A stretch of DNA of 64,000 nucleotides from Dipteris shenzhenensis (taxonomy: Eukaryota), in NCBI GenBank assembly GCA_047967505.1, contig CM106538.1. The stretch is one strand, 5' to 3'. This document shows positions 1,715 to 36,207 of this stretch, in pieces. A program made the translations under genes and the position numbers. Below the pieces are notes generated by a model. The model did no database searches. It had not been told where the DNA came from and saw only the letters and a program-made list of their open reading frames with translations. Within the stretch, counting starts at the first letter, position 1. Every line of letters begins with the position of its first letter.

Positions 1715-2714
1715 AACCCTCCTATCAAACCATATATTTTATGGGTGGGTTAGGTGGTTAACGTGTAAATAAGCAAGATAGGGATTAAGGCGATGAGTTG
1801 ACAAGATAGGAACTCACAGTTTTACTGACTGGATTTTGATGATTTTTTATGATTGTGAAGTTTTATTCAGGTATTTGTGTGATAGGGGGATGCTAAACTA
1901 CCTAGTCTACCTTCTCAATGTAAAAAACAACAACATTTGAATGGCAAATGGGGTGTTTTGCAAAAAGTGACAGTTTTGCCTTCCAAAACCACTTCAAGCA
2001 TCACTTTTGGGTGTTTTTGTTGGGGTTTTCTATCACACACACCTTAGAAATCCTCTAAACTATCTTCCTATCAATTCAAAACACTAAAAAACATCAACAA
2101 CAAGCTCTAAATGATGCAAAATGATTTCCAACAGAAAATGATACCTTCTTCTTTTCCCTTCCAAAAACTCACACTTCTCCACTCATTCCTCTCTTACAAC
2201 TCCACTATTAATGCTCCTAGTTAAGCTTGTTGTAGGGATCTTGAAGGAATGTCGATGGAGCCTCCACTCCAAGCTAAAACTTGTGAGAGCAATGCAAAGC
2301 ACGAGCCATTCGCAAGTGTCACTCAAGCATCTCCCAGATTGTTGCAATGTGTTTCTATGAGACAAAGAGAGAAAGGGGAGATGGGAGAAGAGAGGGAGAA
2401 GGGGAGGAGAAGAGGTGAATGAATGGGGATGGAGTGGCAAACACAAAGGCAATACAAAGGAAACAAGAGAACACCCAAAAACACTCTTAGAAGAGAAGAG
2501 GGAGCTTGTATTCCAAACTTGTGGATCCAACAATGAAGACCAAAGTCAGCCACTTGGCCTTTTATACATGTCACGTTTTGAAGGGAGGGCCAACCCTATT
2601 CCCTTTATACCACTCTCTTTCCTCATTCTTTTACAACCATCTTGGGCCTATTTAGATCCAAGGCACAATCCTAGCTCTATGGACTTGCCACTATCGACTA
2701 TCAAATGATATCAC

Positions 2715-3440
2715 TAACCAATGGTGGCATATTGTTAACCAATTGGTTAACAAAATATCTTCCCTTTACATAGACAATATAATTACAACATATCCATCCC
2801 ATGCAGCTTATCATCCATGCATGATTGTGGCATCTCACTGATAACGTAATGTGGCATTAGCAATGTGATGTAACATGATGTGGCATCCATACCCATCAAT
2901 AAAGTGATATGGCATGCACATTAGCTCATTGACCATTGGTAATCTGATGTGGCTTGTTTTTTTTAGGGAGGGCTACCAACCATTGGCAAGATGTCATGGG
3001 ATGCCATATCACATTATCAAAGGGGGGCATGGATTTTAACCATTGGCAAGATAATGTGATAGAGTCTTTTTTTTATAAAATTGGCCACACAAAACTCCAA
3101 AAAGTAAATTGCCACATTAGCTTGTCGATGGTCAACAAACTATCCTCCCTCCTCACCCCCCACCCTAAAAAAAAAAAAAACAAGCCATGTTAGTTTACTA
3201 ATGGTCAGCAAAGCTCCCCATCAATAACATGATGTGGCATGCCACATCATCTTAAACTTTTTGGGAGGGTTGAAAAACTATCGACAAGCTGCCATGCCTG
3301 TATTTTTTTTGGGCCACCAAAAAAAACTACCACATCTACCAAACCCCCCCTTCCCCATCAGTAACATGGATGTGGAATGCCATGTTAGCTTTTTATGGTC
3401 AACAAGCACCCCATCTACAAGATGATGTGGTTGGCAAGCT
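2715..3440. repeat. Region with dispersed TGATGTGGCA / GCCACAT and AACCATTGG motifs in both orientations
   Basis: Many copies visible, e.g. near 2877, 2946, 3230, 3241, 3424. Resembles transposon subterminal motif clusters (inference). Confidence 0.45.
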
Positions 3441-3469: not shown

Positions 3470-3873
3470 TGTGACATGAAGTTGGGGGTAATGAAACTTC
3501 ATGCACCTCTTAGCTTCCTGCTCTTTCCAATCTTAATAATAGAGACCCTTATCGCTTGCAAAGAAAGATGAAGAAAATATTTTCATGTAAAGAAAACCAC
3601 AACATATCTTTCTCCTTGCTTCCCTTAGAGGAGAATGAATATGGTAACATCCCAAGTGACGTTGTAGTCCAACATCGGAAGAAGAAAATGATCCGCAGAG
3701 GCCATTATCTCACCAAGCTGGACAGTGTTAAAGAGAAGAGCGATGTGTTGTTGGAAGAAGATATTTCGGCTCCACATGATGTGAACTAATACATATCTAG
3801 GGGGTTGAAGGGGCTGATTTGGCTGGATGGGTAAATTCCGGGAAAACATGGCACCTCCTTCACAGAAGCCTCT
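3470..3873 (+). repeat. Diverged ~400 bp duplicate of 9142-9543 (transposase-like fragment)
   Basis: Both begin TGTGACATGAAGTTGGGGGTAATG. ORFs 3556-3789 and 9228-9461 are near-identical in translation. Confidence 0.92.
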
Positions 3874-4354
3874 AAAAATGGCTCAAAATCATTCTACAAA
3901 TTGCTAGAAAACACAGAGGTCTATAACTTCCACTAGAGAGCTAATATCAAAAATTAAAGTATGTATAGGTATGTGCCTTGAAGTGAGCTTCGTACTGATA
4001 TAAGTTTCATTGAAAATAGATAACCGGTTGAAGAGATATGGACAGTTTATTGAAAGGGGATTAAAACTATCATGAAAATAGACTATCAAACACAGAGACT
4101 CATAACTTTTTACAGTAGTATTTGATTTAAAATCTAATCAAATAGGAACATGCGTCTTAAAGAGAGCTTCACGCTGATATAAGTTTCATCAAAAGGGGGT
4201 CAAACTATCATAAAAACTGCCCTCCACCCATGCTAATTTCGCCTGAGCAAACTACTCCCTCAGGGCTCCATAATTATCAACGATCCAATACCCCTAGAAT
4301 TTGCCTAAAAGAGAGGAAGAATCTTGGATGGTGGCTCGGGAAACGGATGGACCA

Positions 4355-4860
4355 TGTGTGCACAGTGAGCGGCCAAACAAGAACTACTTTAGAGACTTGA
4401 ATAGAGAGAAAAGAACATAGGAATGGAGACTCAAGGAAAATGATAAGAAGAGACTTTCATTGCCATGAGAGTAAGACTCCACTCAAATACACTCAAAATA
4501 CAACAAACACAAGGGAGAAGAAGAGGTTTCATACATACAAGAGGGAGCGGAATCTCCAAGACTACTCATAGAGAGAGAATAAACTAGAGAGAGATGGACT
4601 CAAGAGTCTACATAAGAGAACATCTACATGAGGGAGAGAAGGCTCATGAAAGAGGCTTGAGGAGACTGGACCTATAGTAACATGAGGCCGAATGGTGGAA
4701 GCGATGATGAACAAGGGAGAGGAGGCCTCCTTTTATAGAGATTTTGTCACCCTCCTTCACCCATTTACAATTGCTGCCTGTAGATTCTTTTCCCCATCAA
4801 TCACATAAGGCCGTATGTCACAATCCATGTCCTTTTTGGCTACTCTTGCCATGTGTCCCA
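4355..4860 (-). mobile_element. LTR-like fragment abutting the truncated Gypsy pol
   Basis: Non-coding, with TATAAAAGG on the minus strand near 4730-4737. pol homology stops at about 4860. Confidence 0.4.
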
Positions 4861-6781
4861 TCAAAACTACATAGTGCCATAGCCTTTTGATTAAGCTCCT
4901 TCAAATGAGGACTTCTTGTCTTGTAATGCCCTTGCATTTGCTTTATAATAGGTAGAGAATCTCCTCTTACTTCCAATTCTTTAACTTGACTTTGAAGACA
5001 ACCCTCCAAACCAAGAATCAAAGCATTATACTCAGCTGCATTGTTAGTTGTAATACCTGGAAGCTCTTGTTCTCTTGCCCACATGTCTTGACCTTTAGAA
5101 TTAATCAAGACTATCCCCTTGGCTCCTTGTTGGCATGAAGGACTAAAATCCCCATCAAAATACAAAACAAAAGCTGTTGGTGGTGTATCCCTTTCATCTT
5201 TAATGTTCTCCTTACATTTCTTTTCTTCTCCTAGATCCTCCCGTCTTATGAGCAAATTTGCCATAGTGGACCTAGTGGTATTTTCAATGACAAAAGAGAA
5301 AGAGAACTCTTGAAGCTCTGACAACCATTTTGCAAATCTCCCCCCAGGATTAGGCTTGCGAACTAGATATGCTAATACAAACTGAGAGGTAAGAAAGAAA
5401 AATGGTCGAGGTAATAAATAGGAGCGAAACTTTCTGACTAAAAACACCAAAGAGAGAGCTTGCTGCTCCATTTCTTCATACCTTGTTTCCACCTCTATAA
5501 GCTGTCGGCTAGCATAATAGATGGGTTGCATTCTACCTGCCTGTCCTTTTTGTAGCAATACAGCACCAACTGAATGCAAAGATACACTTGGATTTACATA
5601 AAAGTCTTGAGACCAATCAGGGGGCTTCAATATTGGGCCCTTACTCATGGCCTCCTTAAGTTGCTGAAAAGACTCTTGTTGCTCCACACCCCATTGGAAA
5701 GAAACTCCTTTTCTTGTCAATAAGTTCATGGGATGCACTATCTCTGTGAAATCATCACAAAAGCATTGATAATACTTGCTCTTTCCTAGAATTCTACGAA
5801 CACCAGTGACACTTTTAGGACTTGGCAATGCCATGATTGCTTGAACCTTGTCAGGATCCATTTGCAGGCCTTCTTCAAACACAATATGCCCCAATAAGAC
5901 TACTTTTGTTTGAGCCAAATGACACTTTCTAGGATTTAAACACCCTTTTGCTTCATCAATCCTAGCTAAGGCCATCTTTAACTTCTCCATGTGATCTATG
6001 CACCGAGAATAAATGCAAAAATCATCCAAAAACACCCTTATGAACTTTCCCAAGTAAGGCTTCAACACTTGACTCATGAACCTTTGAAATGTAGCTGGTG
6101 CTTTGGTCAACCCAAAAGGCATCACTCTGTAAGTAAAAACTCCCCAAGGTGTGACAAATGATGTTTTCTTTTGATCTTCCTCCCAAATACGAATTTGAAA
6201 GTACCCAAAATACCCATCACATACAGAATACATCTCATGCCCTACTACTTGGTGTAGTATTTCATCTTGGAATGGCAAAGGAAAATGATCCCTCTTAGTG
6301 CATGCATTCAAAGGATGAAAGTCCACATAGACCCGCCACTTATTTCCTTTCTTTTGCGTGACAACTACAGGAGATATCCATTCTAAATCATCAACAAGAA
6401 AGATGAATCCCACCTCAAGTAGTTGTGCTACCTCTTTCTTTAGTACCTCAACTTGGATCCCCCCAATCACCTTAAGCGTTGCACAACTGGCTTGCTTTGT
6501 GGCTTCAACTCAATCTTGTGCTCCACAAGAGAGACTGGTTGAACCTGTGAATAGCTTGTTGCAAAGAGACATGGAAAGTCATCTAACATATCCAAGTACT
6601 GGAGCTTCTCACTACCTAATAGAGAATCACCAAGAAGCTCTTCATTGCATTGGCATCGTTTAGTGTGCTCCACATCCTCCACATGAAGTGTCTCTATAGG
6701 ATCTTCTTGCACCACCATCTTGTTCCTTCCTGACTCGTCCCGATCAGCACCAAGACAAAGACCAAAGGCCACTCCTTCCAC
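4818..6781 (-). pseudogene. Ty3/Gypsy (Tat-like) pol: RT, RNase H and additional archaeal-type RNase H; integrase missing
   Basis: RT motifs WISPVVV, MPFGL, FLDDF; RNase H PIYYASR; second RNase H YFDG...TNNAAEYNAL...RGDS. Frameshift near 6470. Confidence 0.93.
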
Positions 6782-6987
6782 CTCACCCTCTGAGATGGAC
6801 TCCTCGAAGCTACACCCTGTCTCTTCTTCTTCTTCGGTTAAGTCAGAGCTTAACTCTCTGATGTTGAAGACTCCTCCTTGACAACTTGCTTTTTGTGGCT
6901 TCTGATGTTGTAGTGCACCTTCTTAACATTTTATTGCAAAATCAATTCTCCAGTATCCCACTTTTGAACAACCCTCACCTTGCGTAT

Positions 6988-7458
6988 CTAAGGCCTTTCC
7001 AAAATCAATGGATAGGCATGTGCATCTGGCTTGGTAGGGATCACTTGAAAAGTAGTCAGCACAGAAATTCCACATACATCCACTTCTAGATTCTTCACAA
7101 CTCCCAAGGTCTTAACCCTAGTGTTGTTAGCCAATTTGATGCGATAAGGAAAGGTAGTACTAGAGTATTTTAAATCAGCATCTATCATGGTCTTATCAGT
7201 CATGACATTAATCGATGCACCTCCATCAATGTACACATTAGAAATCACCTGACCATCAATGATCACATCAACCATAGGTACATCATCACCAACATCTATA
7301 TCTACCTTTTGAACAAAAGGAATGGCACTTTTCTTCTTTTTCTTCTTTGACACTCTTGTGCTTGCTAGCTTTCCCCATTCCTTCTGTAGTTTTGGAGACA
7401 AAGCAAGTAATTGACCAAAGGTGATATGAGCTTTCTTTTCTTTAAGGTCGGACAACAA
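6988..7458 (-). pseudogene. Gypsy aspartic protease
   Basis: YIDGGASINVM active-site-like motif and terminal YPLILERP. Confidence 0.85.
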
Positions 7459-7587
7459 GTCATAGCTTCCGATGCCTTGTCCTAAAGGAAATTCTGACTG
7501 GCTAAGTCTCCTTCTAGATGCTCTCTTTTTCTTAATATGGCATTCCTCTTCTTGATGTTCCTGATCTACTTCTTCCTTGCTTTCTTT

Positions 7588-8480
7588 TTATTCTTTTGCT
7601 TTACCACGCCCCCGTTTAGCCATCATTACCTCTCTTTCCTCATCCCCTGAAGAAGCTTTTAACAAGGATACTTGTTTTTCTTCTTTCTTTCTCAATCTAG
7701 GACACTCGAGGTGATAGTGACCTTTTTCATTACATTCATAGCAAGTGACCCCACTCTTATCTAGAGGCCTATCTTCACTCTTTGGTACTCTAGATTGTTG
7801 TGGATTAACTAAATGCAATTTCAAATCAGCAAACTCTGCCATCAATTGGGAGATATTATGATCTAACTCAAAGGACTTTGGTACCTGAGGAGTGTCCATT
7901 ACCTCCACCTTAGAAGTTGAAGCTGTTGAAGACACAAAAGAGGATTTGATCTTTAGAGAAGCTTCTTTCTTGGTCGCAATGCGAAGTGCCTCCACATATG
8001 TTGTTGGATATTTACTCATTACTTTTGAACGAAGACGAGGCTCCAAAGCCATAACAAATTTTCTCATCTTTAAGTGCTCCATCCCTAAGAGACTTTGAGG
8101 GGCCGATGATGCAGATGCCATAGCTCGCAAAGCTGCCCTTTCATACTTTGTCCATAAAGTTTCATATCGGATTGCCAACGAAGAGACCATCTCACCCTCT
8201 CCTTGATGGAACCGGTCCAACTGCAACATCAAAGCATTTGGCGATGCCACTGTCCCAAATCTCTGCTTCATTACTGCCACCACTTGATCCCAGTCTTCCT
8301 TGGTAGAGTCCAACAAGGCCTCATGCCCACTCAAGGCTACACCTTCAAGAAAATCAGGCAAAATCTCTACCCAATCCTTCGTGGACCATCCAGAAAGCTA
8401 GCATCCTTGAACAAAATCCTGAAGATAAGACTCCAGGTCTTCCCCTTGGGTCCCTTGAAACACTAGAATCTTCACCATGA
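7588..8480 (-). pseudogene. Gypsy gag with CCHC zinc knuckle
   Basis: QGEGEMV major-homology-like region and CYECNEKGHYHLEC knuckle. Confidence 0.88.
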
Positions 8481-8552
8481 TCAAACACAAAAAGGAAACA
8501 CCAAGATCCAAATAGTATCCCAAACAAGATCCAAACAAGATCCCACAGAGCC

Positions 8553-9045
8553 TTAGTATACCAAGACCAACTTATTATGCATAATCACTTGTTGAAAACC
8601 CTCCACAATGTGATCCTCAATCTTCAAAAATAAGTGACCACTAGCACCATGAAAACATCGTGTATACATGCATTCAAAAATTACCCTTCTCACAATTGGA
8701 AGTGCACATGATAGCTTCAAGATATTGTACTCTTCATCATTTGCATAGCAAAAGAAGTTGAAAGCATTGAGAATCACCACTCCACTGTTATAGTCAAAAA
8801 CTACCCAAAGACTCAACTCTTCTTCACACCAAGCTGCCAGTGCATGAAATAATCCCCGATCTATCACTGTGCCTGCTGCCAGCATTGTCGATTCACCAAC
8901 ATATTCAAGAGTGCAAACATAAATGATATGATCATGATGACCATGCAAATAGCTTGAGCATCACCTTCACAATCTTCAAGTTCTCTTAAATGGGCTGCAA
9001 TCTCTTCTAACGGAATTCTTCTAGGCATCTTCTTTATCATATGCC
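8553..9045 (-). CDS. Extra ORF of unknown function between PBS and gag (frameshifted near 8950)
   Basis: 131-aa ORF 8553-8948 in gag sense, preceded in another frame by MIKKMPRRIPLEEIAAHLRELEDCEGD. Confidence 0.4.
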
Positions 9046-9118
9046 TATACTAGGCATAACATGCAATCAAGTACACCCGAGACCGTTTAGTAAGGTGGGA
9101 TGAATCCAATACCAAATG

Positions 9119-9136
9119 TACCCGGTGTCTCCACCA
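9119..9136 (-). promoter_or_regulatory. Primer-binding site, probably tRNA-Ala
   Basis: Minus strand reads TGGTGGAGACACCGGGTA; plus strand CCCGGTGTCTCCACCA resembles the tRNA-Ala 3' end. TG follows at 9142. Confidence 0.7.
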
Positions 9137-9141
9137 AAAGA

Positions 9142-10696
9142 TGTGACATGAAGTTGGGGGTAATGAAACTTCACACACCTCTTAGCTTCTTGCTCTTCCC
9201 AATCTTAATAATAGAGACCCTTATCACTTGCAAAGAAAGATGAAGAAAATATTTTCATGCAAAGAAAGCCACAACATATCTTTCTCCTTACTTCCTTTAG
9301 AGGAGAATGAATATGGTAACATCCCAAGTGACATTGTAGTCCAGCATCGGGAGAAGAAAAGAATCCACAGAGGTCATTATCTCACCAAGCTGGTCGGCGC
9401 CAAAGAGAAGAGTGATGCGTTGTTGGAAGAAAATCTTTCGACTCCACATGACATGAAGTAATATATATCTAGGGACTTGAAGGAGCTGATTTGGCTGGAT
9501 GGGTAAATTCTGGTGAAACATGGCACCTTCTTCACGGAAGTCTCTGTGCATGCAAACAAGAGCACCTGCAAAGGGTGGCAAAAAGAATCAAAAGCAATGG
9601 GCCTTTGAACTTGCAGAGATAGATCAAACTAAGGCACCAGATAGGGATGCTCCAGGGAAAGATCCATCAAGGAGCCCAATTCTTGAAATTCCTCTTGAGC
9701 GAGTACACATTTGTGCGCTTCATGCTATTGTGAGAATAATTGAAAAGTTGGTGCATTTATACATCATTGATGCATATAACTTGAAGCCCCAACAAGAGAG
9801 TGAGAGGATGATTGCAAGAATTGAAAGGTTCTTTCAGATATGCGACTACACTCTGGGCAAGTAAAGATTACAAAAGATGAGAAAAGATCTGGAAAAATAG
9901 GCAATGTTCCTTGTAAGCCAAGCTTTGGTCGTGTCAAGGCTTTCTGCAAAGAAGAAGAATGACAAGCTCAAACGTGCTAATGAGTTTGATGTATGGAGAG
10001 AGTTACACAATGCCTATTGTGAACGAGGTGGGAAGGGACAAAAAAGACTGGAAAAGGCACGAGTGTGGTTAGCTCTTGATAGCTTAGTACCTTTACTACT
10101 ACAAAAGAAAAGATTCGAAGAAGATGATGCACAATGTTTCATCAATGCTATGAATGACTTTGGCCGGAATAACGAGATAGCTTGGGGAAAGAATCATTTC
10201 ACACAGTACATGGTAATCTCTAACTTGGACATTGAGATGTGCATATTGAATGGTCCTATATTTACTGATTTGTTTTTCTATTTGGCAGCACATATTATAT
10301 GCTCATGCACCATACATGGCATGGAATTATGGAAGCATCAGAGTGTGGTCCACTTAGGGCATGGAAAGATCGCATTGGCAAGCACATTGTGCACATAATA
10401 GAGTGACCCAACACGAGGGTGGTAGAACTAAGTTAAGCCCAATGGTTCAATTGGTTCAATGGTGGTCCAGGCATATCGAAATAAGAGTAGCTGCAACACT
10501 AGCATTCAAAGAGTCCTTAGTGTCCCATGCAGTGCAAGATGTTAATGCAGAACGTCGAAGAAGAATATACAACTCATCGAATGCAAGACAGAATCATGCA
10601 AGTTGGCATGCAACCCATCATAGACAAGGGTGCATATGGGTGGAGACAGATGAAAATGATGGTGTAGACTCTTCCAATGTGGATTTCCATGCATAA
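9142..10696 (+). pseudogene. RAG1/Transib-like DDE transposase, decayed, with intron 10213-10288
   Basis: YISRDLK (candidate second Asp, ~9474), IPLERVHICALHAIVRI, and spliced FTQYM|HILYAHAPYMAWNYGSIRVWST*GMERSH (HxxxxH plus catalytic Glu at 10364). GT..AG 76-bp intron restores the frame. Several stops and frameshifts; N-terminus missing. Confidence 0.8.
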
Positions 10697-10894
10697 GTTT
10701 CAGAATTTATTTGTAATTTTAATTATGTGATTTGTAGTAAAGCCAACGTATAATGGACGTGAGTTGCAATATAAATGAGAAATTTTGTGTTATGGGATGT
10801 TAATTATAAGTATTTAGCTCAAGGTTGCACTAATTTTACTTTTTAAAGGCTTTTTATTGAAACAAATATTTTTAAAAAATTAAGGTTTTTGTCC

Positions 10895-10903
10895 CTATAT
10901 AAG
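10895..10903 (+). promoter_or_regulatory. Candidate TATA box for the H3-like gene
   Basis: CTATATAAG about 135 bp upstream of ATG 11036, followed by a pyrimidine-rich leader. Confidence 0.4.
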
Positions 10904-11035
10904 AGAATGCACCCTCATTTTCATTTCACTGTTTAAAGAGCTCTCCACTCCCAAACCACCTCCCACTTGCCCCTGAGATTTCCACCCTATCTCTTGCACC
11001 CTTACCCTTTCTCTTGCACACTCTCTCCATCCCCC

Positions 11036-11773
11036 ATGGCCAGGCGCAAGATTAAGGCACCACGGAGACTGGCACAACCAGACCCACCTCCAGACTCAGA
11101 GACAGAGAGTGATAGCCCCCCCCTCTCCCCACGATGGATCCCCGATCAAAGGGAGAAACTGCCAATCCGGAAGCCAGACAGGGAGCAAGAGGGACAGAGG
11201 AAGGCACAAGAAGATCCTCTAATATAGACGGATGACTCAGAGAGCACAAAGGAGAAGCGTGTGGAAGAGAAACAACAAAGGACAGAGTAGAGGACCAAGA
11301 GAAGACAATCAGGGTCCACACCGATGGGGGAGAGGTGCGTGAGCTCCAAGTGCAGGTCAAAGAGGCCCTCAACATCCAAGAAGAGGCCCTCCACATCGAG
11401 GGCAAAGAGGCCCTCCTCCAACGATGCGGTACAGATTCAAGCTAGGGACAGTGGCACCACAGGAGATCAGAAAGTTTCAGAAGTCCATTGATCTGCTCAT
11501 CCCAATGGCCAGCTTCGCAAGGGTGGTATGCGAGGTCATGCAGGGCCTCAACCTTAGCCCAATGTCCCGGTTTTACTGGCGCGGAGTTGTGGAAGCTCCC
11601 TAGCAGAGATGCCTTGCTTGCATTGCAGCATGCATCTGAGGCCTACCTAGTAGACCTCACGAATGACACCTAGCTAGCTGCTATCCCTGGCTGCCATCCA
11701 TAGGAAAAGGGTCACAGTGACCACTGCAGACATGCAATTTATTGAACGTTTTAGGAATCCCAAGGGCACTTAG
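11036..11773 (+). pseudogene. Divergent histone H3-like gene (CENH3-like traits, long N-terminal tail), intronless, disrupted
   Basis: Starts MARRK. From 11427 reads RYRFKLGTVAPQEIRKFQKSIDLLIPMASFARVVCEV, then DALLALQHASEAYLVDLTNDT, then LAAIHRKRVTVTTADMQFIERFR, stop 11771-11773. Frameshifts and stops, including a 13-bp duplication near 11674-11699. Confidence 0.9.
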
Positions 11774-11788
11774 GGATTTTGTATGCTC

Positions 11789-12349: not shown

Positions 12350-15300
12350 TAATTAGAACAACACGATTGGTAGTTGGATGGGTCCATCTTCACCATCCAA
12401 CTGAGGACCCTGAACTTCATGATGTTTATCTTTCCATCTGGCAATAATTGTCGAGGCAAGGTTGGCCATATTGCCAGAGACTATTTCAAGAAGCAAGCAA
12501 ATCAAAGAGGAAAGGTAAATTAGCATGGTCATTTTGCCTCTTCTAGTCATGTGCATGAGACATCCTCAGGTCAGCTATTTGCTATGATGCATGTGCAGGA
12601 TCATAAGCCTACTGATGGTGGCTTGGATGATATATGGTATATTGATTTAGGAGCATCTAATCACATGACACCACATGGAGAGTGGTTTGATGAGATGACT
12701 CCTGGTGTGCATGGTTATGTTTGCACAAGAGATGATACACAACATGACATTTCACACAAGGGTGTTGTGCCTCTGGTGATGCATGATGGTCAGCAGACCA
12801 AGAATCTGCGTGAAGTGTTGCATGTGCCTTCGATCACCAAGAACTTATTGTCTGTTGGACAAATGGCTGAGCAGAACTTGCAAGTCCAGTTTAATAAGGA
12901 TGGATGCTTCATTGAGGAGTTTGGTAATGGCTGCAAAGTTGATTGCAAAAGGGAAAATGCAAGGAAGAATGTTTACTTTAGATGCAGGCATGCCGGAACT
13001 AAAGGCTGCCATGTTTACCCATGGTATAGGTGTTGTCTCTGATTTGGAAATTTGGCACAAATGCATTGGTCATATTAATATTCAGAAGCTGAAAAATATG
13101 TAGCATAAAGGCATTGTTGTTGGCCTACCAAAGTTTAAGTGTAATGCTTTGGAGCATGTATGTCCTGCATGCCAATTTGGGAAGCAATCCAAGTTGCCAT
13201 TTACTAGGCATATGTGGGAAAGTAATAGACCCTTGCAGTTGATTCACACTGATGTCTGGGGTCCAGCTCAGACTACCTCCATATTATGTCACATTTATTG
13301 ATGATTTCAGCCAGTCTACATGGCTGTATTTTTTGAAACATAAGGATGAGTTCCTACCTACCTTCAAGCATTTCACGCAACATGTTGAAAAGGAGTTTGG
13401 GTCATATATCACATGCTTGAGATCAGATAATGAAGGTGAATATCTGTCAAATGAATTTGATGACTTCTTGGCCTATCATGGGATTAGACGGGAGCTTACA
13501 TGCCCATATAGACCACAGCAGAATGGACTGGCTGAACGTAAGAATGGGGTGATTGGTTCGTCTGGTAGAGCCATGTTGAATGAAAAGAATTTGCCTAATT
13601 ATTATTGGGCAGAAGTACTTGCAACTGCAGTGTATGTGCTGAATCGTACTCCTACTAGTGGCATTCATATGCTCACACCATATGAGAAATTGTATCGACA
13701 GAAGCTTGATGTCAGTAATTTAAAAGTGTTTGGTAGCTTGGCATATGTGCATATACCAAATGAAAAGAGATGGAAGTTGGATCCCAAAGCTGAAAGATGT
13801 GTGTTTATTGGCTATGCACAGAATCGAAAGGGTTACAAATGCTACAACCCATCGACCAAGAAGACTATGGTGAGTCGGGATGTTGTTTTTAATAGCTGGA
13901 ATCTTGGTATGGCAAGCCGAAAGTGGTTGTTCCAAATGATGCATCTGCAGGTCATGCATATGATAAAAATCAGCAAATTAGTACATCCATATTTGGGCCT
14001 ACATCTACTGGTTCTACCACAGTGAATCCTTGGTCTGGCAGGTTACGCAATTCCACTGACACTGCTATGTTAGTGAGAAGGAGAGATAAAGGGAAAGCCA
14101 AGGTTGTCCCTAGGCCATGAAATTGTGGCTATGATCCATCATGTAGTGATAGTTTAGATAGTGAGATGGGTATACCATCTGTGTCTACACTTGGAGTCAA
14201 GGGAAGCAGGTACGTACCTCCTCATGAACGAGGAGATTCAGGCACTCCAGTGAGAAGGTCACAGAGAGTCAGGTATCCTGTTGACAGGTTAACTTATAGT
14301 AGTTATGCTACTCGGCATTATTGCATATATGACAAAAGTTATGGGACATACTGAACCAACTATCTTTGGTGAGGCTATGCAACATGGTCATTGGCAGAAT
14401 GCCATGGATGAGGAGATGGATGCTCTTGCCACTAATTAGACTTGGGATTTGGTGGAGTTGCCTGAAGGCAAGAATCCTATTAGTTGCAAATGGGTCTACA
14501 AAGTAAAATCCAAGTCTGATGGATCAGTGGAAAGGTATAAAGCAAGGCTGGTTGCCAAAGGGTATGCACAGTAATATGGGCTAGATTATGAGGAAACTTT
14601 CAACCCTGTTGCCAAGATGGCAACTATGAGAACTATCATAGCATTGGCTACTGCAAATGGCTAGAAATTGCAGCAAATGGATGTCAAGAATGCTTTCCTA
14701 AATGGTCACTTGTTGGAGGAAGTCTATATGGTTCATCCCAAGGGTTATGTGCACCCTGACTATCCCAACTATGTTTGCAGGTTGAAGAAAGCTCTCTATG
14801 GGCTGAAGCAAGCACCTAGAGCATGAAATGAAAGGATCAGTAGATACCTACAGGAGCTTGGTTTTGTAGTTGGGAAGGCTGATCATTCATTGTTCACAAA
14901 GAAAACAATTGCTAGATATGTTGTGATTGTGATTTATGTTGATGATCTGATTCTGACTGGTAGTGATGATGATGGCATTGCTGAAATTGAGATCAAGCTG
15001 AAAATGGAGTTTGATATGAAGGATCTCGGGGACTTGAAGTTCTTTCTTGGCATAGAGGTGTTGAGAACCCCTAATGGCATTTGGCTTATGCAGAGGCAGT
15101 ATGCCTTGAATATGCTAGAGAGGTTTGGCATGAAGGATTGCAAACCAATGGAGATGATGGCTGATTTTGGAGCTAAGATTGATGACATTACCATGTACAG
15201 GCAGATGGTTGGAAGCTTGATTTATCTGACTATTACTAGGCCTGATTTAATATATGCTGTGGGACTCATTAGTCAGTTTATGCAGAAGCCACGGAAGCCT

Positions 15301-16090
15301 CACTTGGATGCAGTGAGAAGGATTATGCGCTATGTCAAGGTAACATATCAGTATGGACTCTTTTATGAGTATGGAAAGGATATAGAACTGGTTGGATACA
15401 CAGATGCAGATTGGGTAGGATGTGCCTATGACAGGAAATCCACCAGTGGTTATGCATTCAGCCTTGGTAGTGCAGTGGTGAGTTGGAGTAGTAAAAAGCA
15501 ACCCATAGTGGTATTGTCTAGTACAGAAGTAGAGTACAGAGGAGCAGCATTGGCTGCATGTGAGATTTCTTGGCTTCAGAAGCTTTGGCAGGATTTGGGA
15601 CTGCATGTGGAAAAACCAATCAGGCTCTATTGTCATAACATGAGTAGTGTGCAGTTGGCAAGTAATCTGGTTCATCATGCTAAAACTAAGCATATTGAGG
15701 TACACTACCATTTCATTAGAGAGATGGTGTTATCAAAGAAGATTGATCTCATACATGTGAAGACTGAAGATCAAGTTGCAGATATCTTTACCAAGTCATT
15801 GGGTAGAGATAAGTTTACATACTTTAGAGAGCTACTTGGTGTTATGCTCCCTACTTGAGCTTGACGGGGAGTGTTGGGAATCAAGCTCTCTGTTATTGTT
15901 CCTGTTATGTGAGTAGGTGAATAAGGTGAGTCACACTGACTCAACCATAGCTAGTTCTTATCTACTATGTATGGGTGTGACCTTAGTAGTGTTCAATTGT
16001 ATTGTGTGGGGTGAATATGAGCTGATTGTGGAGGAGACTGTTGCTCCTTCCTGGTTGCTTCCTATATCTCTCTTCTTGTTTTTCTTAATA
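12350..16090 (+). mobile_element. Ty1/Copia, 5'-truncated and decayed (gag knuckle remnant, PR, IN, RT, RNase H, PPT, partial 3' LTR from 15872)
   Basis: WYIDLGASNHMT; FIDDFS, LRSDNEGEY, QQNGLAER; IYVDDLI; ADIFTKSL; TTGACGGGGAG then TGTTGG at 15872. Confidence 0.95.
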
Positions 16091-25554: not shown

Positions 25555-27620
25555 CCCCCCCTCAATGTCCACCTGCAAGTGAACTTAATTTTTCGGCCCA
25601 ATGCCAAGTCGATGAAGATGCCTCTCCAGCAAGTCTCTTCCAAGAGCCTTCGTGAAGGTGTCCGTAGCATTCTCTATAGTCGGACAGTACACCAAGTTGA
25701 CCTCTCCATCCATGATGAGCTCGCGTACAAAGTGATATTGAATCATGTGTTTTGTGCGAGCATGGAACACCAAGTTCTTTGCAATTGCCATGCAACTCTG
25801 ATTGTCACATGATAACTACATAGGCTTGCTTTGCACTGCACCCATGTCCCCTAAAATCCTCCTCAACCATATTGCCTCATAAGAAGCAAAACATGCTGAT
25901 TTGTACTCATCCTCGATAGAAGAAAGAGCAACTGTGGGTTGCTTCTTGCTGACCCATGACACAACTCCAGATCCAAGTGAGAAACAGTAAATTGTCACTG
26001 ATCTCCTGCTATCCACGTCTCCTTCCCAATCCGAGTCACAGAATCCGGTGTTGCCCTTGGTACAGGTGATGCCATAATCAAGTGTTCCTTTGATGTATTT
26101 TAGCACCCGCATCCCTGCCCTCCAATGGTTCTCCAGGGGCTTATTGGAAAACCTGCTTAGTACACCAGTCGCAAAGCTGATGTTCGGCCGCGTGTTGCAC
26201 AAGTAAATCAAACTGCCCACAATCCTTCTGTACTTCGCTTTGTCCACCAGTGGTGATGAATCCTCAATTGAGAGCTTCACGTCAACCTCCATAGGGGTGC
26301 CAACTGTCTTGCACTCAGCCATGCCAAATGCCTTTAGTACTCCATTCAGAAAGGAGGATTTTACATCCATCTGAAACATGGGCAAACTTTCTTGTGCTGT
26401 TAAAGCCAAAACACTGCGAATTGTGGTTAGTTGAGCTGTGGGAGCAAAAGTATCATGATAATCAAAACCATGTACCTGTGCGAATCCTTTTACCATGAGC
26501 CGAGCCTTGTATTTATCCAACGTGCCGTCGGACTTGTACTTGGTCTTGTACACCCACTTGGTTCCGATTACTTTGTGTTGTGGTGGGCGATCCACAAGGT
26601 CCCAAGTGTTGTTCTTCATTATGGAGCCATACTCCAACTGCATAGCCTCCATCCACCTATCATCACCTTGTGCCTCTTCAAGACACTTGGGTTCTTCAGC
26701 ACGGATCACCTCTGTCATCAAAGCGTAGTTGACCAAGTGTTCATGCACCCTTCTTTGCTCCTCTAATCTCTTGGACCGGCGGTGTTTGGATGGTTCCTCC
26801 TCAATGGCTAGAGGTTCTCTGCCGTCCAAAAGCTGCTTTACCCACTTTGAGAATGGCCGTTGCCATTGTGGTTCTGCAAACTCTTCTTCCTCTTCTTTAT
26901 CTTGAATCCTCCCAAGCACCATTGGGGGAGTTCAGTCTGCTGTTGGTGGTTGTATTGGATGGATATCCTGGTCCTGGTTGTCTAGGAAGAAAGCATCCTC
27001 CTCTAATTGATGCGGCTATTCTGAGAAGACCACATCACAACTTACTATTGCCTTCTTGGTAATAGGGTTATAGAAATGGTAACCCTTCGCCTCTTCACTG
27101 TAGCCCAAGAAAATACATTTCCGGCTCTTCGATTCATATTTGGTCCTGTTAGCATCAGGGACATGCACAAAACAGTCACATCCAAAAACTCTGAAATGTG
27201 CAGTTGAAGGTTTCTTACTAGAAAAGGCCTGCAGTGGAGTCATCCCGTTCACAGCCTTCATGTAGCTACCTTCGTGTATCTACGATTCAGAATGTAAACT
27301 GCCATGTTACATGCTTCAACCCAGAAAGTCTTTGGCAAATCTTTCCCTTTCATCATACTCCTGCCCATTTCGCAGATGACACACATCTTGCGCTCTGCTA
27401 CTCCATTTTGCTATGATGTATGTGGCGGGGGTTTCTGCCTCTTGATCCCGTGACTTTTGCAGTAACTTTCGAATTCACTTGATTGAACTCTCCACCTCTG
27501 TCTGATCTCAACTTCTTCACTTTCCTCCCCGTTTCTTTCTCGACCATTACATGCCATTCTTTGAACTTACTAAAAGCCTCATCTTTAGTCTTCAGGACGG
27601 TATATCCATATCCCAAAGCA
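25555..27620 (-). pseudogene. Copia pol remnant (IN, internally deleted RT, RNase H)
   Basis: LRSDRGGEF; KWVYKTK...YKARL; QMDVKSSFLNG joined directly to VLKAFGM (YVDD region absent); FHARTKH...TFTKAL. Confidence 0.92.
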
Positions 27621-27699: not shown

Positions 27700-30600
27700 T
27701 TCGACCATTACATGCCTTTTTTTGAACTTACTAAAAGCCTCATCTTTAGACTTTAGGAAGAATTATCAATCCCAAAGCAGCTTTGAGTGTGTTCTTGTAA
27801 GTCAGCATTGAAGAGGGCAACCTCTACTTGGAAAGTGTGGATCAGTTCTATGATTTTCTTCTGGTCCTGTTCAGCCAGTTAACAAACAGTAAGTCAGCTT
27901 GCAAAATAACTTGATTAAACTGAAGATTATTCTTGGTTACCCATATAAACCAAAGAGCATGTGCTCTCAGGGGTGACCAGGTGTCCTGTCTTATCCTTGA
28001 AGGAGCCTTGAAGAGTCTCCATGCAAGATGGCCTTCCAATTCACTGGCTCCCCTATGGACTATTTTCCATACCTTTCTGGCCACTGGACAAGCCACAAAG
28101 AGATGGAAGATATCTTCATTGGTAGAGGGACAATTCATACATTTACCATTACCCTTCCCAATCCTGAGTCCTCTGATATTGGTCCACACAGCTTTATGCA
28201 ATATGAGCCACATCAGGGCAGATAGTTTGTCTGGAATTGAAGGAGACCAGATGGCACAAAACCTGAATTTCCATTTCTCTTTGGAGTCATGAAGTTTCCA
28301 CCTGTCATTAAGAACCCTACAGAGATCATCCATGTCCCTGCTTGGTGTGGGTATAGGGAAGAAAGAGGAACTTTCCACCCAACTAAACTCCCTACTGTAC
28401 ATAAGGAAAGATCCCCCCTTCCACTATTGGCTGCCACTCCAAAGTTTTAATCTACTCATAACAAGTGACTGGCTTTTGTTGTTTAGACTGAATTCTCTCC
28501 TAATCTCTACCCAAGTTTTCCACCTTAGTTCATGTCTGTTCCATAGCTGCCCTAGCTTTGCAAACCCTTTTTTAATAGAAGAGCTACCTTGGCTATCTCT
28601 TCATCAGAACTCTTCATCAGAAAGCACAACTTCTTTGAAAATAATAGAAATCCAAATTGAGTCCAAGGTCATAAAGGCACCTTTACCTGAGAAGACAATT
28701 TGGCTTTTAATCCCTTCAAAAGCTATCCAAAGAGAGACCCAAAGCCGGCTGCCTTTAGGTTTGCAGGGTTCGGGGTTACATATACCTGACAACATGGGGT
28801 AGTTTTTCCACTTGAGGACTCTGAGGGGTCTTAGGGAGCTGACATTCCTAAGGAGAAGTTGATCCCAGTCTTCAATAGGGTTTAGGATGTCTTTAGAATC
28901 TAGGTTGAGGAGAGTTTCAGAGCAACCTGTTCTATGTCAATAACTCCTAATCCACCCTCCTGTTTGGGTTTGATACAGAAGTCCCACCTGCTGACCTTGG
29001 GTATCTTGCCTCCCCACAGAAAAGATCAACAAGTTTTTATGAATCTGTCATGCTTGCCTGAGGGTAGCTAAATACCTTTCAACTTGTTTTCTTGGCTTTG
29101 TTAATGGAAAAGCCATCCCAGGGAGTCTACTGCAATTGCAAAGAGTAAAGGGGCAATAGGGCACCCCTGCCTTATAGATATTTTAAGCTCAAATGGTTGG
29201 CTCATGATCCAATTAACACAAATCTTTGCAGTAGCATTTGTGAGGAGGAGTTTGATAAAAGAAATGTAAAGGGGGCCAAGACCCATATCAGCCAGAGCTT
29301 GGATGATGGACTCCCATTCAAGTCTATCATAAGCCTTGTCAAAGTCAACCTTCAAGAAGCATATGTCCTGTTTTGTTTCTCTGGCATACTCACATCCCTC
29401 CCAAATGTTGATGATAGCTTCAAGTAGATGTCTGCCCTTTATGCAGCCTTTCAACTATGGTAGGATCCACTTGGCCATTCTGTTTCTAATCTCAGAGCCA
29501 GAGCTTTAGCAAAGATTTTATAGCTACATTTGAGCATAGTAAGAGGTCTCCAGTTCCTTAGCTCAGTCTTATCTCCTTCCTTAGGAATAAGTTTTATAAC
29601 ACCACCATTGATATGTGTAGGCAGGCACCCACTTTCAACACTTTCTTGCCATAAGAGCAGGAGGTATGGGCCAATAGTGGACCAGAATCTTTTGTAGAAT
29701 TCAATTGGTAGTCCATCCTCTCCTGGTGTTTTACCATCAGCCATCACCTTGACAGCTTCAAAAAGCTCCTCTATAGTAGAGGTTTCTCCAGGTACTTGTT
29801 ATCAAAGCTGAGAACAGTGCTTTTTCTAGCTTCCTTCCAAAGTTCTCTAGCTTTAATCACTTCATTGTCTACTTGAATGGTGGAGGACAGTAAACTCTAA
29901 AAATGAAGCTGAATGAGGTCAATGTCCTCCTCATTGGACACGGCCAAAGAGTTGTCAGCTTTTCTAAGAAGGGGTACCTCTTCATTAGACCTTTTCCTTC
30001 TAATACTTTTGAAGTACTCCTTGGTAGGTTTATCAGCTTTGCCAGCCCACCAATCTCTGAAGTATACCTTAGAGTCATCTAGAAGAATCTACTCTTGAAT
30101 CCTAAACTCATTTCTTTTGAGCACCAAGTTAGCCTATGCCTGAGGGTCCCCCTGTCTAGCTAGGGTCTCTAGGGTAGTAATCATGCTCTAAATGTTGTCC
30201 ATCCTCTTTGCCCTAATTTTAGCTTTGTCCTTTCTAGATTTTTTGAGGAACCTTTGGGTCTGGTCAATTACAATATACCAGGATTCACTGGCAGAAGGAG
30301 ACTCAGTGAAAGCCTTGAGCCAAATAAGTTTAACACCTCTGAACACTCCTTAAGTCAAAAAATTTGGGATCATCCTTAAACCACGATGTGGTTTTTTGGC
30401 CCAAGCCAAACTCACACTTGAGCAGGATTGGCTTGTGGTCTGAAAGAAAAAAAGAGGAAAAAACCTGAGTCTGCTGGCAAGAGCTGGTTTGGCTAACTAG
30501 ATCTTGTGAGACATATATCCTGTCAAGTCTGGCCTCTCTTCTGTTGTCCCCCACTTGATTGTTTGACCATGTGAAGATGTCCTTTATCCCCATGTCCACT

Positions 30601-34906: not shown

Positions 34907-35043
34907 TCCAGTGTCAAGCTTCCATAGCTTTTCTGAAACCTTCTCCGTAACCTTTCCACCACCTCCATCACCTTCTCGGCCACCTCCTCGAGGATCGTAG
35001 CAATTTTGTATATTTCCTTGCTCGGAGCTCAGCTCAAACTGCC

Positions 35044-36207
35044 ATGTCTTTGCTCAGAAGAAGAGGTGCAGGATCTGCCGTGCACACCCTCTCCCTCCTG
35101 CACGCGCCCCCTTATCAGACTGGCTTCTTCGTTTGTCACCTCTGCTGGGAGAGAGGTAGCGGTCCTCTCTATCATTGTCCCGATTGCCAGTTCGACCTTC
35201 ATACCACCTGTGCCGGCTCTGGAAATCAGCAAACTCACTTTTCTCACTACCAGCACCCCCTGCATCTCAAATCTGTGAATCCTGGCCATACCTGTGATGG
35301 CTGTAAAGAGCCCATCTTCTCGTCTGTCTATCGTTGTAGCCTCTGTGACTTCGACCTATGCACCCTCTGTGTCCGAGCTCCCAGGTTTGTACGCCATCCC
35401 AGCCATCCCCATGTGCTCGTTCTCTCTCTGGCGAGTGAACTCTCGGGTTCCTGTCAATGCGATGGCTGTGGAAGACACGTCTCTGGGATGGTGTATCGGT
35501 GTACCGGTTGCAATTTTGATCTCCACCAGTCTTGTGTGACGCTCCCGCTCAAACCGCTGCATCACAAACACCCAGAGCATCCGCTTACTCTTCATTTCCA
35601 ACGTGAAAGCGGATGGAGCTCCTACAATTGCAACGAGTGTGGACGCGGAGGGACGGGGTGGGTTTACAACTGCTCGATCTGTACGTACAACTTGCATCCC
35701 GGCTGTGCAAAGATTCCACACGAGGTGCCCCGTTCGGCGAGTTTGCAGAAATGGCATGAGCCTCTGGTCTCACCGCGGTGGGATGTCCCGCAAATGTGGT
35801 CTGACCGACCAGAATCGATATATCAAGGAAATGAGCTTGTTCGAACGTCGCCTTATTCGAGGGTTCGGGGTACTAATTCTTACGAGTCACCATACGATTC
35901 GAGCATGCGCGGGCTCGGTCAGGGCACGCAGGTGATCTCGCCGTCCCCTTACGTCTCCTCGTTGCGTGAGACTTCTTCCCTGGGCAGATCACCTTACTCC
36001 TCTTACTTATCCACGCCAGCTTTAACTTACAACAGACCTGCACACTCTCCTTATACGTCGTCACATGATTTCCTGAATGCTAACGATGGTTCTCCTTCAG
36101 CCAAGTTGCAGCAACTGACCCAAATAGCTCCGTCTCTGAATCCCAGGGATGCGGAGAGGATTCTGGACTATCTAGGGGGGTCACATGCATCTAGTGCGTT
36201 GTACTGA
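35044..36207 (+). CDS. Cys/His-rich DC1 (C1-like) domain protein with four domains and an S/P/Y-rich C-terminus, intronless
   Basis: Intact 387-aa ORF with four H-x-L...CxxC...YxCxxCx(F/Y)xL(H/C)xxC units; CpG-rich, consistent with a live gene. Confidence 0.92.
   Translation: MSLLRRRGAGSAVHTLSLLHAPPYQTGFFVCHLCWERGSGPLYHCPDCQFDLHTTCAGSGNQQTHFSHYQHPLHLKSVNPGHTCDGCKEPIFSSVYRCSLCDFDLCTLCVRAPRFVRHPSHPHVLVLSLASELSGSCQCDGCGRHVSGMVYRCTGCNFDLHQSCVTLPLKPLHHKHPEHPLTLHFQRESGWSSYNCNECGRGGTGWVYNCSICTYNLHPGCAKIPHEVPRSASLQKWHEPLVSPRWDVPQMWSDRPESIYQGNELVRTSPYSRVRGTNSYESPYDSSMRGLGQGTQVISPSPYVSSLRETSSLGRSPYSSYLSTPALTYNRPAHSPYTSSHDFLNANDGSPSAKLQQLTQIAPSLNPRDAERILDYLGGSHASSALY

Follow-up and report, generated by a model that had tools for sequence, protein, structure and literature searches.

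The gene described here probably comes from a transposon of the CMCT (CACTA-Mirage-Chapaev-Transib) clade, which the excerpt of Kojima (2025, PMC12730594) composes of EnSpm/CACTA, Mirage, Chapaev and Transib, together with Plavaka, ESTA and Lanisha. According to that excerpt, a C(2)C / H(3-4)H / DDE residue pattern is common to the whole clade, plant CACTA included, the elements have 5'-CA..TG-3' ends and 2-5 bp target duplications, and ESTA transposases reach RAG1 by HHpred only. The Transib superfamily is characterized by a 5-bp target-site duplication and by terminal inverted repeats beginning with a CACAATG-like heptamer (Kapitonov & Jurka 2005, PMC1131882). For Novosib, no Pfam model exists (Muszewska 2017, PMC5751038). 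Thirty-nine plant Transib-like proteins are already in print (Tao 2022, PMC9435367); the first-pass annotation of this DNA had called a spliced plant Transib/RAG lineage notable. Our literature search (Transib in plants, in land plants, in Chlamydomonas, and with histone H3) returned no plant RAG1-fold or H3-carrying Transib.

Outside animals, RAG1 has few relatives, and little has been described of them. To our knowledge, RAG1, RAGL and Transib provide the only solved structures in the CMCT clade.

The window analysed here is a stretch of 64,000 nucleotides from Dipteris shenzhenensis. Its positions 9547-11774 are probably the dead remnant of a two-gene unit, comprising a RAG1-fold enzyme and a histone H3 variant and derived from a CMCT-clade transposon.

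A truncated enzyme gene next to a Ty3-type retroelement

The following features are referred to below.

3470..3873, minus strand: copy A of the LTR of a Ty3-type retroelement, partner of 9142-9545
4818..8397, minus strand: gag, protease, RT and RNase H ORFs of Ty3 type, between the two LTR copies
9142..9545, minus strand: copy B of the LTR of the Ty3-type retroelement, holding 'SRDLK' at about 9470
9547..9823, plus strand: piece a of the enzyme gene, frame 1, starting at the C-x-x-C motif's second Cys (CM...) and extending through IPLERVHICALH
9825..9941, plus strand: piece b, in another frame, KVLSDMRLHSGQVKITKDEKRSGKIGNVPCKPSFGRVKA, with a frameshift at either side
9943..10212, plus strand: piece c, frame 1 again, ending ...AWGKNHFTQYM at the splice donor
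10213..10288, plus strand: intron of 76 nt, GT..AG, at the conserved intron site of the family
10289..10696, plus strand: last exon, C-terminal tail to the stop at 10694-10696
10896..10903, plus strand: TATATAAG, 133 nt upstream of the histone-like ATG, read by eye only
11036..11774, plus strand: decayed intronless histone H3-variant gene, N-tail MARRKIKAPRR..., stop at 11225

The fragment at 9547-10696 belongs to a family of ~900-aa proteins named by no Pfam model, and corresponds to their C-terminal ~40%. By tblastn it begins, at 9547, with the second of the two Cys in the C-x-x-C motif of the family, and piece a aligns from residue 524 of the relative P0099 and residue 499 of the relative P0092 onward. 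Piece a also contains the C(2)H motif, HICALH, at 9706-9723. Piece b is 64% identical to P0092 residues 594-632 and covers profile positions 589-627 (E 2.8e-15). The last exon is 42-43% identical to the P0099 C-terminus, with an alignment running through the last residue of P0099, and holds the H(4)H motif (His 10289-10291 and His 10304-10306) and a candidate catalytic Glu at 10364-10366 (GMERSH). The reading frame is interrupted by frame changes at ~9823 and ~9942, found both by tblastn and with the profile; the lesions of the fragment are these two frameshifts and one in-frame stop.

A profile of 12 relatives matched the window ORFs at 9517-9861 (E 3.6e-33), 9825-9959 (2.8e-15) and 9901-10395 (5.1e-21) and gave no further match anywhere in the 64-kb window. 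Judged by sequence, the fragment matches the family far better than chance would allow. A word-index search with 9517-9864 gave no match. In a phmmer search of 1.84 billion representatives, 58 proteins matched at E <= 1e-3, of which 11 reached E <= 1e-10; the query, P0001, was 9547-10212 in one frame, with residues ~93-132 out of frame, and the matches fell on the flanking parts. Stops at 9862 and 9898 are seen only in this out-of-frame stretch and were rejected as real lesions.

Removal of the proposed intron joins ...NHFTQYM to HILYAHAPYMAWNYGSIRVWST*GMERSH, with a TAG at 10355-10357. The relatives bear out both the intron and the suggestion that the TAG was once CAG. Intact relatives have the identical junction and a Gln at the position of the TAG. 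The motif xHY[MIL] was present in 49 of 109 family proteins; in 38 of them a V comes next, as expected if the protein was read into the GT intron, with the end of the protein 1-112 residues further on, whereas the other 11 continue with HI and so have the joined form. At three related loci (L010, L012 and L022) introns occur at the same spot. Among 14 relatives that were read, all but the degenerate P0008 (13 of 14) have a Gln where the window has its TAG.

The fragment is cut off at 9546 by a Ty3 LTR. The 404-bp repeat at 9142-9545 is 90.3% identical to 3470-3873, and Pfam identified RVT_1, RT_RNaseH_2, RT_RNaseH and RVT_3 on 4821-6509. Since the two repeat copies flank a minus-strand Ty3 gag-pol, 9142-9545 is an LTR and lies outside the gene. 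The first-pass annotation had placed a RAG1/Transib-like catalytic core at 9440..10460, an extent that is right for the gene sequence from 9547 and wrong for 9440-9545, where its candidate second Asp, 'SRDLK', turns out to be part of the LTR. Missing from the window are the N-terminal ~520 residues, including both catalytic Asp; the first zinc Cys is also gone, and what remains of the pattern is the second Cys, the two His and the Glu. The missing part was not found to the left of the retroelement, either by tblastn with seven relatives or with the profile. Insertion of the Ty3-type element, or a later rearrangement at its LTR, would have taken away everything 5' of the second zinc Cys. With both Asp gone, two frameshifts, one stop and a histone gene that is frameshifted too, the window copy is unable to act. 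It is a decayed fragment amid nested retroelements; being inert, its value is as a pointer to the family only.

Residue pattern and predicted fold of the family

The order of motifs in the family is D...D-x20-C-x2-C...[C]-x2-H...H-x4-H-x19/20-E. In intact relatives it is made up of the Asp of KLDE, the Asp of WHLAGDLK, a C-x-x-C ~20 residues on, then the C(2)H motif and H-x4-H, and, 19-20 residues after the last of these, a Glu. D411, D508, C528, H586, C588 and H591 are invariant and C531 is nearly invariant among 12 long relatives, and H761 and H766 are invariant in the nine sequences reaching the C-terminus. The residue pattern of the CMCT clade is therefore present in the relatives, in columns that are invariant or nearly so. 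In P0092 the order is D379, D476, C496, C499, H729, H734 and E753, colinear with the RAG1 range aligned by VIA (see below). The two zinc-binding His of RAG1, which we take to be H937 and H942, have a four-residue spacing like that of the family's H-x4-H. The CALH motif had been read as a parallel of RAG1 DALH. Its Cys is no decayed Asp: 82 of the 85 family proteins having the motif carry this Cys, which is the family norm in place of what is presumably an Asp in RAG1.

At the level of sequence, the similarity to RAG1 was faint. The Pfam RAG1 model (PF12940) scored 15.8-16.1 bits (E 0.003-0.004), below its cut-off of 25, in two of the eight relatives with a C-terminus; these matches fell on the HxxxxH...E segment of two intact relatives. 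The window's own pieces had no Pfam RAG1 match. Searches of all PDB sequences by phmmer and with two family profiles gave no significant match to RAG1, HzTransib or any other Transib. The 27 family proteins searched with Pfam (E <= 0.1 for 15 of them, E <= 1 for the others) did not match Transposase_21, DUF4218 or Plavaka. On these sequence comparisons the family is not ordinary CACTA by Pfam, and the window itself was found to contain no CACTA gene. The nearest named Atlas clusters, compared by protein-language-model features, were RAG1 (score 0.95, 199/256 features).

In order to compare the family at the level of structure, an AF2 model was made of the full-length relative P0092, which stands in for the window fragment. 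The pLDDT of the model was 65 overall, 80-95 in the core blocks, and below 50 in the Glu region (739-790). Its N-terminus is a coiled-coil-rich region of ~300 aa. Foldseek found 47 matches in the PDB at E <= 1e-3 (best, 1.2e-7), and the best 35 of the 47 were all RAG1, BbRAGL or HzTransib; Hermes followed at 5.5e-3. VIA aligned 385 residues of the model (301-782) to RAG1 chain 4wwx_E (471-979) with a Z of 15.8 and an rmsd of 4.3. The Z values for other structures were 14.6 for BbRAGL, 14.5 for HzTransib, 8.4 for P element, 5.9 for ISCth4 and 5.2 for Hermes. A scan of 48,161 chains that was independent of Foldseek placed RAG1, RAGL and Transib chains in the top six positions (Z 12.9-15.8), followed by P element at 8.1 and then by coiled coils at 6.6 or less. 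These comparisons support the conclusion that the predicted structure of the family fits the RAG1/RAGL/Transib core much more closely than it fits other folds of known structure.

The claim of a RAG1/Transib-like core was thus upheld in part. The structure prediction and Foldseek comparison that the first-pass annotation had proposed put RAG1, BbRAGL and HzTransib on top for the P0092 model. The absence of RAG1/Transib hits in profile searches, which the same annotation had said would speak against it, was what we found in sequence, where all matches were sub-threshold. Gene 1 of the unit would accordingly be read, for the intact relatives and on the basis of the model, as a DDE enzyme with the RAG1/Transib catalytic architecture and an RNase H-like core.

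Placement within the CMCT clade

Because all of the CMCT clade has the residue pattern in common, neither the motifs nor the RAG1 fold match can tell Transib apart from its sister lineages. An enzyme of the CACTA, Chapaev, Mirage, Lanisha or ESTA type might fit the RAG1/Transib structures equally well. The assignment 'RAG1-fold, CMCT clade' is supported; 'Transib proper' goes beyond what the data support. The family is predicted to have the three-dimensional architecture of RAG1/Transib, on the P0092 model, without significant sequence similarity to the Transib/RAG1 core. Compared with RAG1, BbRAGL and HzTransib (PDB 4wwx, 6b40, 6pqn/6pqx), its predicted fold spans RAG1 471-979 with Z 12.9-15.8, but significant sequence or profile similarity is lacking and the N-terminus is the ~300-aa coiled-coil-rich region. 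CACAATG-type ends were not found in the 5' flanks of 16 loci, whose contigs may stop short of the true ends.

The family may belong to a CMCT lineage that already has a name, in which case the enzyme would hold nothing new. We regard this as a substantial possibility, though we lean against it. The leading candidate is Lanisha of Ceratodon purpureus (GenBank MT647524), likewise a plant cut-and-paste lineage (Carey 2021, PMC8245031), and no result obtained here speaks against it. Alternatively, the family could be a divergent EnSpm, Chapaev or Mirage branch, or be among the 39 plant Transib-like proteins. The family has the residue pattern given for the clade in the excerpt of Kojima (2025, PMC12730594), where Lanisha is also grouped with the clade; Lanisha, as the excerpt of Carey (2021, PMC8245031) has it, comes from a land plant, a moss; plant Transib-like proteins number 39 in the count of Tao (2022, PMC9435367); and an unnamed Atlas cluster of 67 members near the relative P0097 is labelled mostly Streptophyta. 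However, a CACTA element of the Pfam type is at odds with the missing Transposase_21, DUF4218 and Plavaka matches in 27 proteins, and the 39 plant proteins were found by Transib/RAG1 sequence search, whereas the family profiles reach neither HzTransib nor RAG1 in the PDB.

Our preferred reading remains that of a remnant derived from a CMCT-clade transposon. Most likely, the intact units either are cut-and-paste DNA transposons of this clade or have descended from such elements, and as a lineage the family would stand closer to RAG1/Transib than to CACTA as Pfam defines it. If its action is analogous to that of RAG1 and Transib, the enzyme would work by nicking the ends of the element and releasing these ends through a hairpin. 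A more far-reaching proposal is that what survives in the window is the relic of a RAG1-fold transposon lineage, eukaryote-wide and so far undescribed, with conserved H3-variant cargo, a deep sister of Transib/RAG1, found in plants or algae (the window and five related loci) and carrying a chromatin protein where RAG transposons carry RAG2; this we put forward tentatively, as rather doubtful. A plant or algal family with the full predicted RAG1 domain order, beyond the reach of sequence profiles, would widen the known range of the fold and offer an outgroup for the origin of the RAG/Transib architecture.

The histone H3-variant neighbour and the question of mobility

The second gene of the window lies 340 nt downstream of the enzyme gene on the same strand. 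Its histone-fold pieces (~11412-11600, 11611-11670 and 11693-11774) are in three different frames, and tblastn with the intact H3 variant of locus L002 (168 aa) recovered three pieces in the window at E 1.5e-19. Pfam Histone (PF00125, cut-off 26.4) scored 31.4 bits on window 11424-11600, and 117.5, 66.7 and 56.3 bits at loci L002, L011 and L001, respectively. An H3-like gene directly downstream of the enzyme gene and on the same strand was found in the window and at L001, L002, L011 and L018; at L030 it is present in an apparent deletion form. This linkage of the enzyme gene with an H3 variant is new here. The N-tail of the window histone resembles by eye (M[AV]RRKI..PRRL) a second ORF that follows the H3 gene in L001 and L002; the candidate match was rejected at E 0.44 and 30.

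Eight other related loci have a convergent unknown ORF (ORF2) in place of the H3 gene, and the two kinds of neighbour fall in different clades of the family. The window sits beside the H3-linked clade with a weak tree support of 0.61, and ORF2 was not found in it. The neighbour in RAG transposons is RAG2, whereas here it is an H3 variant or a helical ORF; a RAG2-like beta-propeller gene, as expected next to a RAGL gene, was not seen at either kind of locus. We rejected ORF2 as a RAG2 analogue. It had no Pfam or Atlas match, and its matches in the protein collection were confined to its own cluster. Its model (pLDDT 52) is mostly helical, with no PDB match at E <= 1e-3 and MarR-like best rows at E >= 0.3.

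End-to-end inverted repeats were absent from six loci, and target duplications were likewise not seen, on contigs so short that the true ends may lie outside, and the CACNNTG heptamer occurred 0 times in 6,085 bases of 5' flank from 16 loci, where the true ends may again lie outside the contigs. A 22-mer repeat of L010 was tried as a subterminal transposase site and rejected; all four copies lie at 5051-5343 and none at the other end. As an alternative, domestication could have made host genes of the intact relatives, namely a RAG1-fold nuclease and an H3 variant dedicated to it, with the window copy a pseudogenised duplicate. Domestication would agree with intact ORFs, an intron site kept across members of 27-60% identity, a conserved gene order, inverted terminal repeats not found on the short contigs of six loci, and the absence of near-identical copies among the 32 related loci. 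We consider it improbable nonetheless, since 22 of these 32 loci share one record prefix and represent many divergent paralogues in one assembly, L030 resembles a deletion form, the window copy is decayed within a retroelement nest, and the alternation of neighbours (H3 or ORF2) by clade resembles transposon cargo more than it does a host locus that is fixed.

It is very improbable that the likeness to RAG1 arose by chance or is of a generic RNase H-like kind, with the fragment an unrelated pseudogene: such a reading would fit the negative sequence searches against RAG1/Transib and the moderate overall confidence of the model (pLDDT 65), but not ~385 residues aligned across five RAG1 domains at Z 15.8, the far lower values of other RNase H-like transposases (P element 8.1-8.4, Hermes 5.2), the independent language-model search that likewise gives RAG1, or four zinc ligands and the DDE residues kept in the right order.

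For a CMCT-clade transposon, the H3 variant might, as a guess, alter chromatin on or around the element. If truly transposon cargo, a nuclease gene with a private H3 variant would be an unusual way of meddling with the element's own chromatin. In the excerpt of Dhillon (2019, PMC6710886), hAT transposons of Dothideomycetes are described as having captured histone H3, by a recent transduplication of host H3. Like the family, these are DNA transposons with an H3 coding sequence; unlike it, they belong to another superfamily, and the H3 of the family is, relative to that described in the excerpt, a divergent variant that has been kept beside the enzyme gene across lineages of 32-60% identity.

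The gene fragment and the retroelements around it

Homology to the enzyme family starts with the 'CM' of its C-x-x-CM motif at 9547, and the window sequence reads from there as follows:

to 10212, + strand, frame-1 coding sequence, ending ...AWGKNHFTQYM
10213-10288, + strand, GT..AG intron of 76 nt
10289 to the stop at 10694-10696, + strand, last exon, reading HILYAHAPYMAWNYGSIRVWST(TAG)GMERSH...

The first-pass annotation had given the letters of frame 1, the intron and the TAG-bearing frame after it correctly. Two frame shifts lie within the fragment, at about 9823 and 9942, and the middle piece (9825-9941) continues in another frame with 64% identity to relatives. A 12-relative profile matched the three pieces with E values of 3.6e-33, 2.8e-15 and 5.1e-21 and had zero matches elsewhere in the 64 kb, in agreement with tblastn using seven relatives. 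The N-terminal 520 or so residues were absent from the whole window in both searches, contrary to the near-complete core that had been implied, and the interrupted gene does not resume to the left of 3470. What remains in the window is an inert relic.

The surrounding DNA is retroelement-rich, plant-like and 41% G+C, and contains:

3470-9545, - strand, Ty3-type LTR retroelement with 404-nt LTRs, 90.3% identical
12524-15855, + strand, Ty1/copia-type pol piece (Pfam Pol_BBD, rve, SH3_retrovirus and RVT_2, across three pieces)
25819-26931, - strand, Ty1/copia-type pol piece
56943-58871, - strand, Ty1/copia-type pol piece
27851-28423, - strand, zf-RVT ORF (Pfam)

The stretch 9142-9545 is the copy of 3470-3873. 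Between the pair, on the minus strand, lie the gag, protease, RT and RNase H ORFs of the Ty3-type element, at whose edges no clean 5-bp target duplication was resolved. 'SRDLK' (about 9470), proposed earlier as the second catalytic Asp, is therefore LTR sequence. The observation at 9440-10460 is real, but the left third of that interval lies outside the gene. The 418-aa open frame at 34951-36204 (+ strand) resembles an ordinary host gene; it carries a ZZ zinc finger as well as four C1_2 (DC1) repeats. At 2650-3200, both strands carry ORFs with recurrent 'HITL...' peptide units, which suggests a short tandem or dispersed repeat.

The enzyme family and its relation to RAG1 and Transib

Pfam assigned the window pieces to no named family. 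With the read-through of 9547-10212 as query, a full HMMER search of 1.84 billion representatives identified 58 proteins at E <= 1e-3 (11 at E <= 1e-10), none of them named and most of them fragments that end in '...THYMV' plus a few residues. The motif xHY[MIL] was present in 49 of 109 collected family proteins, followed by V (the intron GT read through) in 38 and by HI in 11. The intron is therefore real and is the conserved intron of the family, as also indicated by its presence at the equivalent site in the related genomic loci L010, L012 and L022. The enzyme genes of loci L001 and L002, in contrast, are single uninterrupted ORFs without an intron at THYM|HIL; it was lost, or never gained, in their lineage. 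Full-length members (P0092, P0097 and P0099, 813-900 residues) align to the window through the last residues. The family alignment has these conserved columns:

KLDE
VEWHLAGDLKTLKC
C-x-x-C, 20 residues past the VEWHLAGDLKTLKC Asp
IPLxRVH-x-C-x-x-H
THYMHIL-x-AH
GS..W.TQGME, Glu 19-20 residues beyond the second His

The Cys of the window's 'CALH', earlier set beside RAG1 'DALH', is not a decayed Asp, since Cys occupies this position in 82 of the 85 proteins with the IPLxRVH motif. The suggested decay of CAG to TAG is supported by a Gln at this site in 13 of 14 relatives read.

In predicted structure, the family clearly resembles RAG1/Transib. Structure tests used an AlphaFold2 model of P0092, built with 25 family sequences, whose mean pLDDT was 65 (80-95 in the core blocks, below 50 in the Glu region). 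Foldseek returned 47 matches at E <= 1e-3, and all 35 listed at that level were RAG1, amphioxus RAGL or HzTransib. VIA-align placed model residues 301-782 on RAG1 471-979 (Z 15.8, 385 residues, rmsd 4.3), followed by RAGL (14.6), HzTransib (14.5), P element (8.4) and Hermes (5.2). A Foldseek-independent scan of 48,161 chains ranked the same six RAG1/RAGL/HzTransib chains on top, ahead of P element (8.1) and coiled coils. When P0097 residues 380-898 were searched by features in the ESM Atlas, RAG1 clusters came first (0.95, 199 of 256 features), and an unnamed 67-member cluster labeled mostly Streptophyta was also listed.

At the sequence level, the apparent likeness is barely perceptible. Neither phmmer nor two family profiles found RAG1 or Transib among all PDB sequences. 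Pfam RAG1 matched two of eight relatives with the segment, below threshold (15.8 and 16.1 bits versus a cut-off of 25, E 0.003-0.004), over profile positions 553-593, the HxxxxH...E segment flagged at the outset.

To our knowledge, no structures in the CMCT clade (CACTA-Mirage-Chapaev-Transib and kin) have been solved beyond those of RAG1, RAGL and Transib. The PDB match and the zinc/DDE pattern therefore place the family in this clade but are not specific to Transib proper. Of the earlier interpretation, the RAG1-fold catalytic region, the true intron and the plant-type genome stand; Transib was too specific. We favor a position nearer to RAG1/Transib than to Pfam-type CACTA, because RAG1 was the sole transposase family matched by Pfam among 27 family proteins (none matched Transposase_21 or DUF4218), because RAG1 and not CACTA leads the Atlas search, and because the His spacing is H-x4-H.

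Kojima 2025 (PMC12730594) groups sister transposase lineages under 'CMCT clade', with a C(2)C, H(3-4)H and DDE pattern throughout, plant CACTA included, and ESTA transposases reach RAG1 by HHpred only. Tao 2022 (PMC9435367) counts 39 plant 'Transib-like proteins'. The family may coincide with one of these, or with Lanisha, a cut-and-paste superfamily of the moss Ceratodon purpureus (Carey 2021, PMC8245031) that Kojima 2025 places with the CMCT clade. Transib is defined by 5-bp duplications and CACAATG-type ends (Kapitonov & Jurka 2005, PMC1131882). Six 5-6 kb loci had no end-to-end inverted repeats, CACNNTG was absent from 6,085 bases of 5' flank in 16 loci, and the related loci included no near-identical copies for reading element ends, which may fall beyond these contigs.

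Histone H3-variant and ORF2 neighbors

What makes the window copy of interest is the unnamed family it points to, together with the repeated association of that family with a histone H3 variant. Scanning metagenome contigs with a 12-sequence alignment yielded 32 related loci. H3-like genes were found as follows:

window, 11036-11774, + strand, decayed intronless histone H3-like gene (start MARRK..., histone-fold pieces in three frames)
L002, intact H3 variant of 168 aa, 137 nt past the enzyme stop (Pfam Histone 117.5 bits)
L001, L011 and L018, H3-like gene arranged as in the window
L030, H3-like gene fused to a shortened enzyme gene

The window gene lies on the same strand, 340 nt downstream of the enzyme gene, and scores 31.4 bits for Pfam Histone (cut-off 26.4). 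H3 capture by hAT elements has been published for fungi (Dhillon 2019, PMC6710886). None of the papers listed by our literature searches dealt with a Transib-type element carrying an H3 gene.

In L030 (1-1496), the enzyme match ends at about query residue 632 and the H3-like stretch (1371-1496) follows immediately; this locus may be an internally deleted copy. A further same-strand ORF begins about 400 nt past the H3 variant in L001 (3077-3238) and L002 (2713-2856) and is truncated by the contig edge. Its H3-like start (MVRRKITPRR and MVRVKKTPTR, respectively) resembles the window's MARRKIKAPRR by eye only.

In eight loci (L005, L006, L009, L010, L012, L016, L022 and L025), a convergent ORF2 of about 620 aa replaces H3. 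A 3' flank of 300 nt or more was available for 14 loci: four had H3, eight ORF2, and two with short flanks (L015 and L024) neither. A FastTree phylogeny (LG+gamma, 49 rows, 215 columns) was calculated, leaving out ten near-identical cluster members (P0075, P0076, P0077, P0080, P0081, P0083, P0087, P0088, P0090 and P0094). It recovered the ORF2 clade with support of 1.0 and an H3-linked clade (P0097/L001, P0099/L002, P0092, P0098 and P0100) with 0.99; the window is sister to the latter, with an attachment support of only 0.61.

ORF2 had no relatives in Pfam, the Atlas or databases. Its low-confidence predicted model is helical and without a beta-propeller, so ORF2 is not RAG2-like. Upstream of the ORF2 start, L010 (5051-5343) carries a 22-mer four times, about 90 nt apart and with palindromic partners, and L005 (5009-5257) two 80-nt palindrome-bearing repeats.
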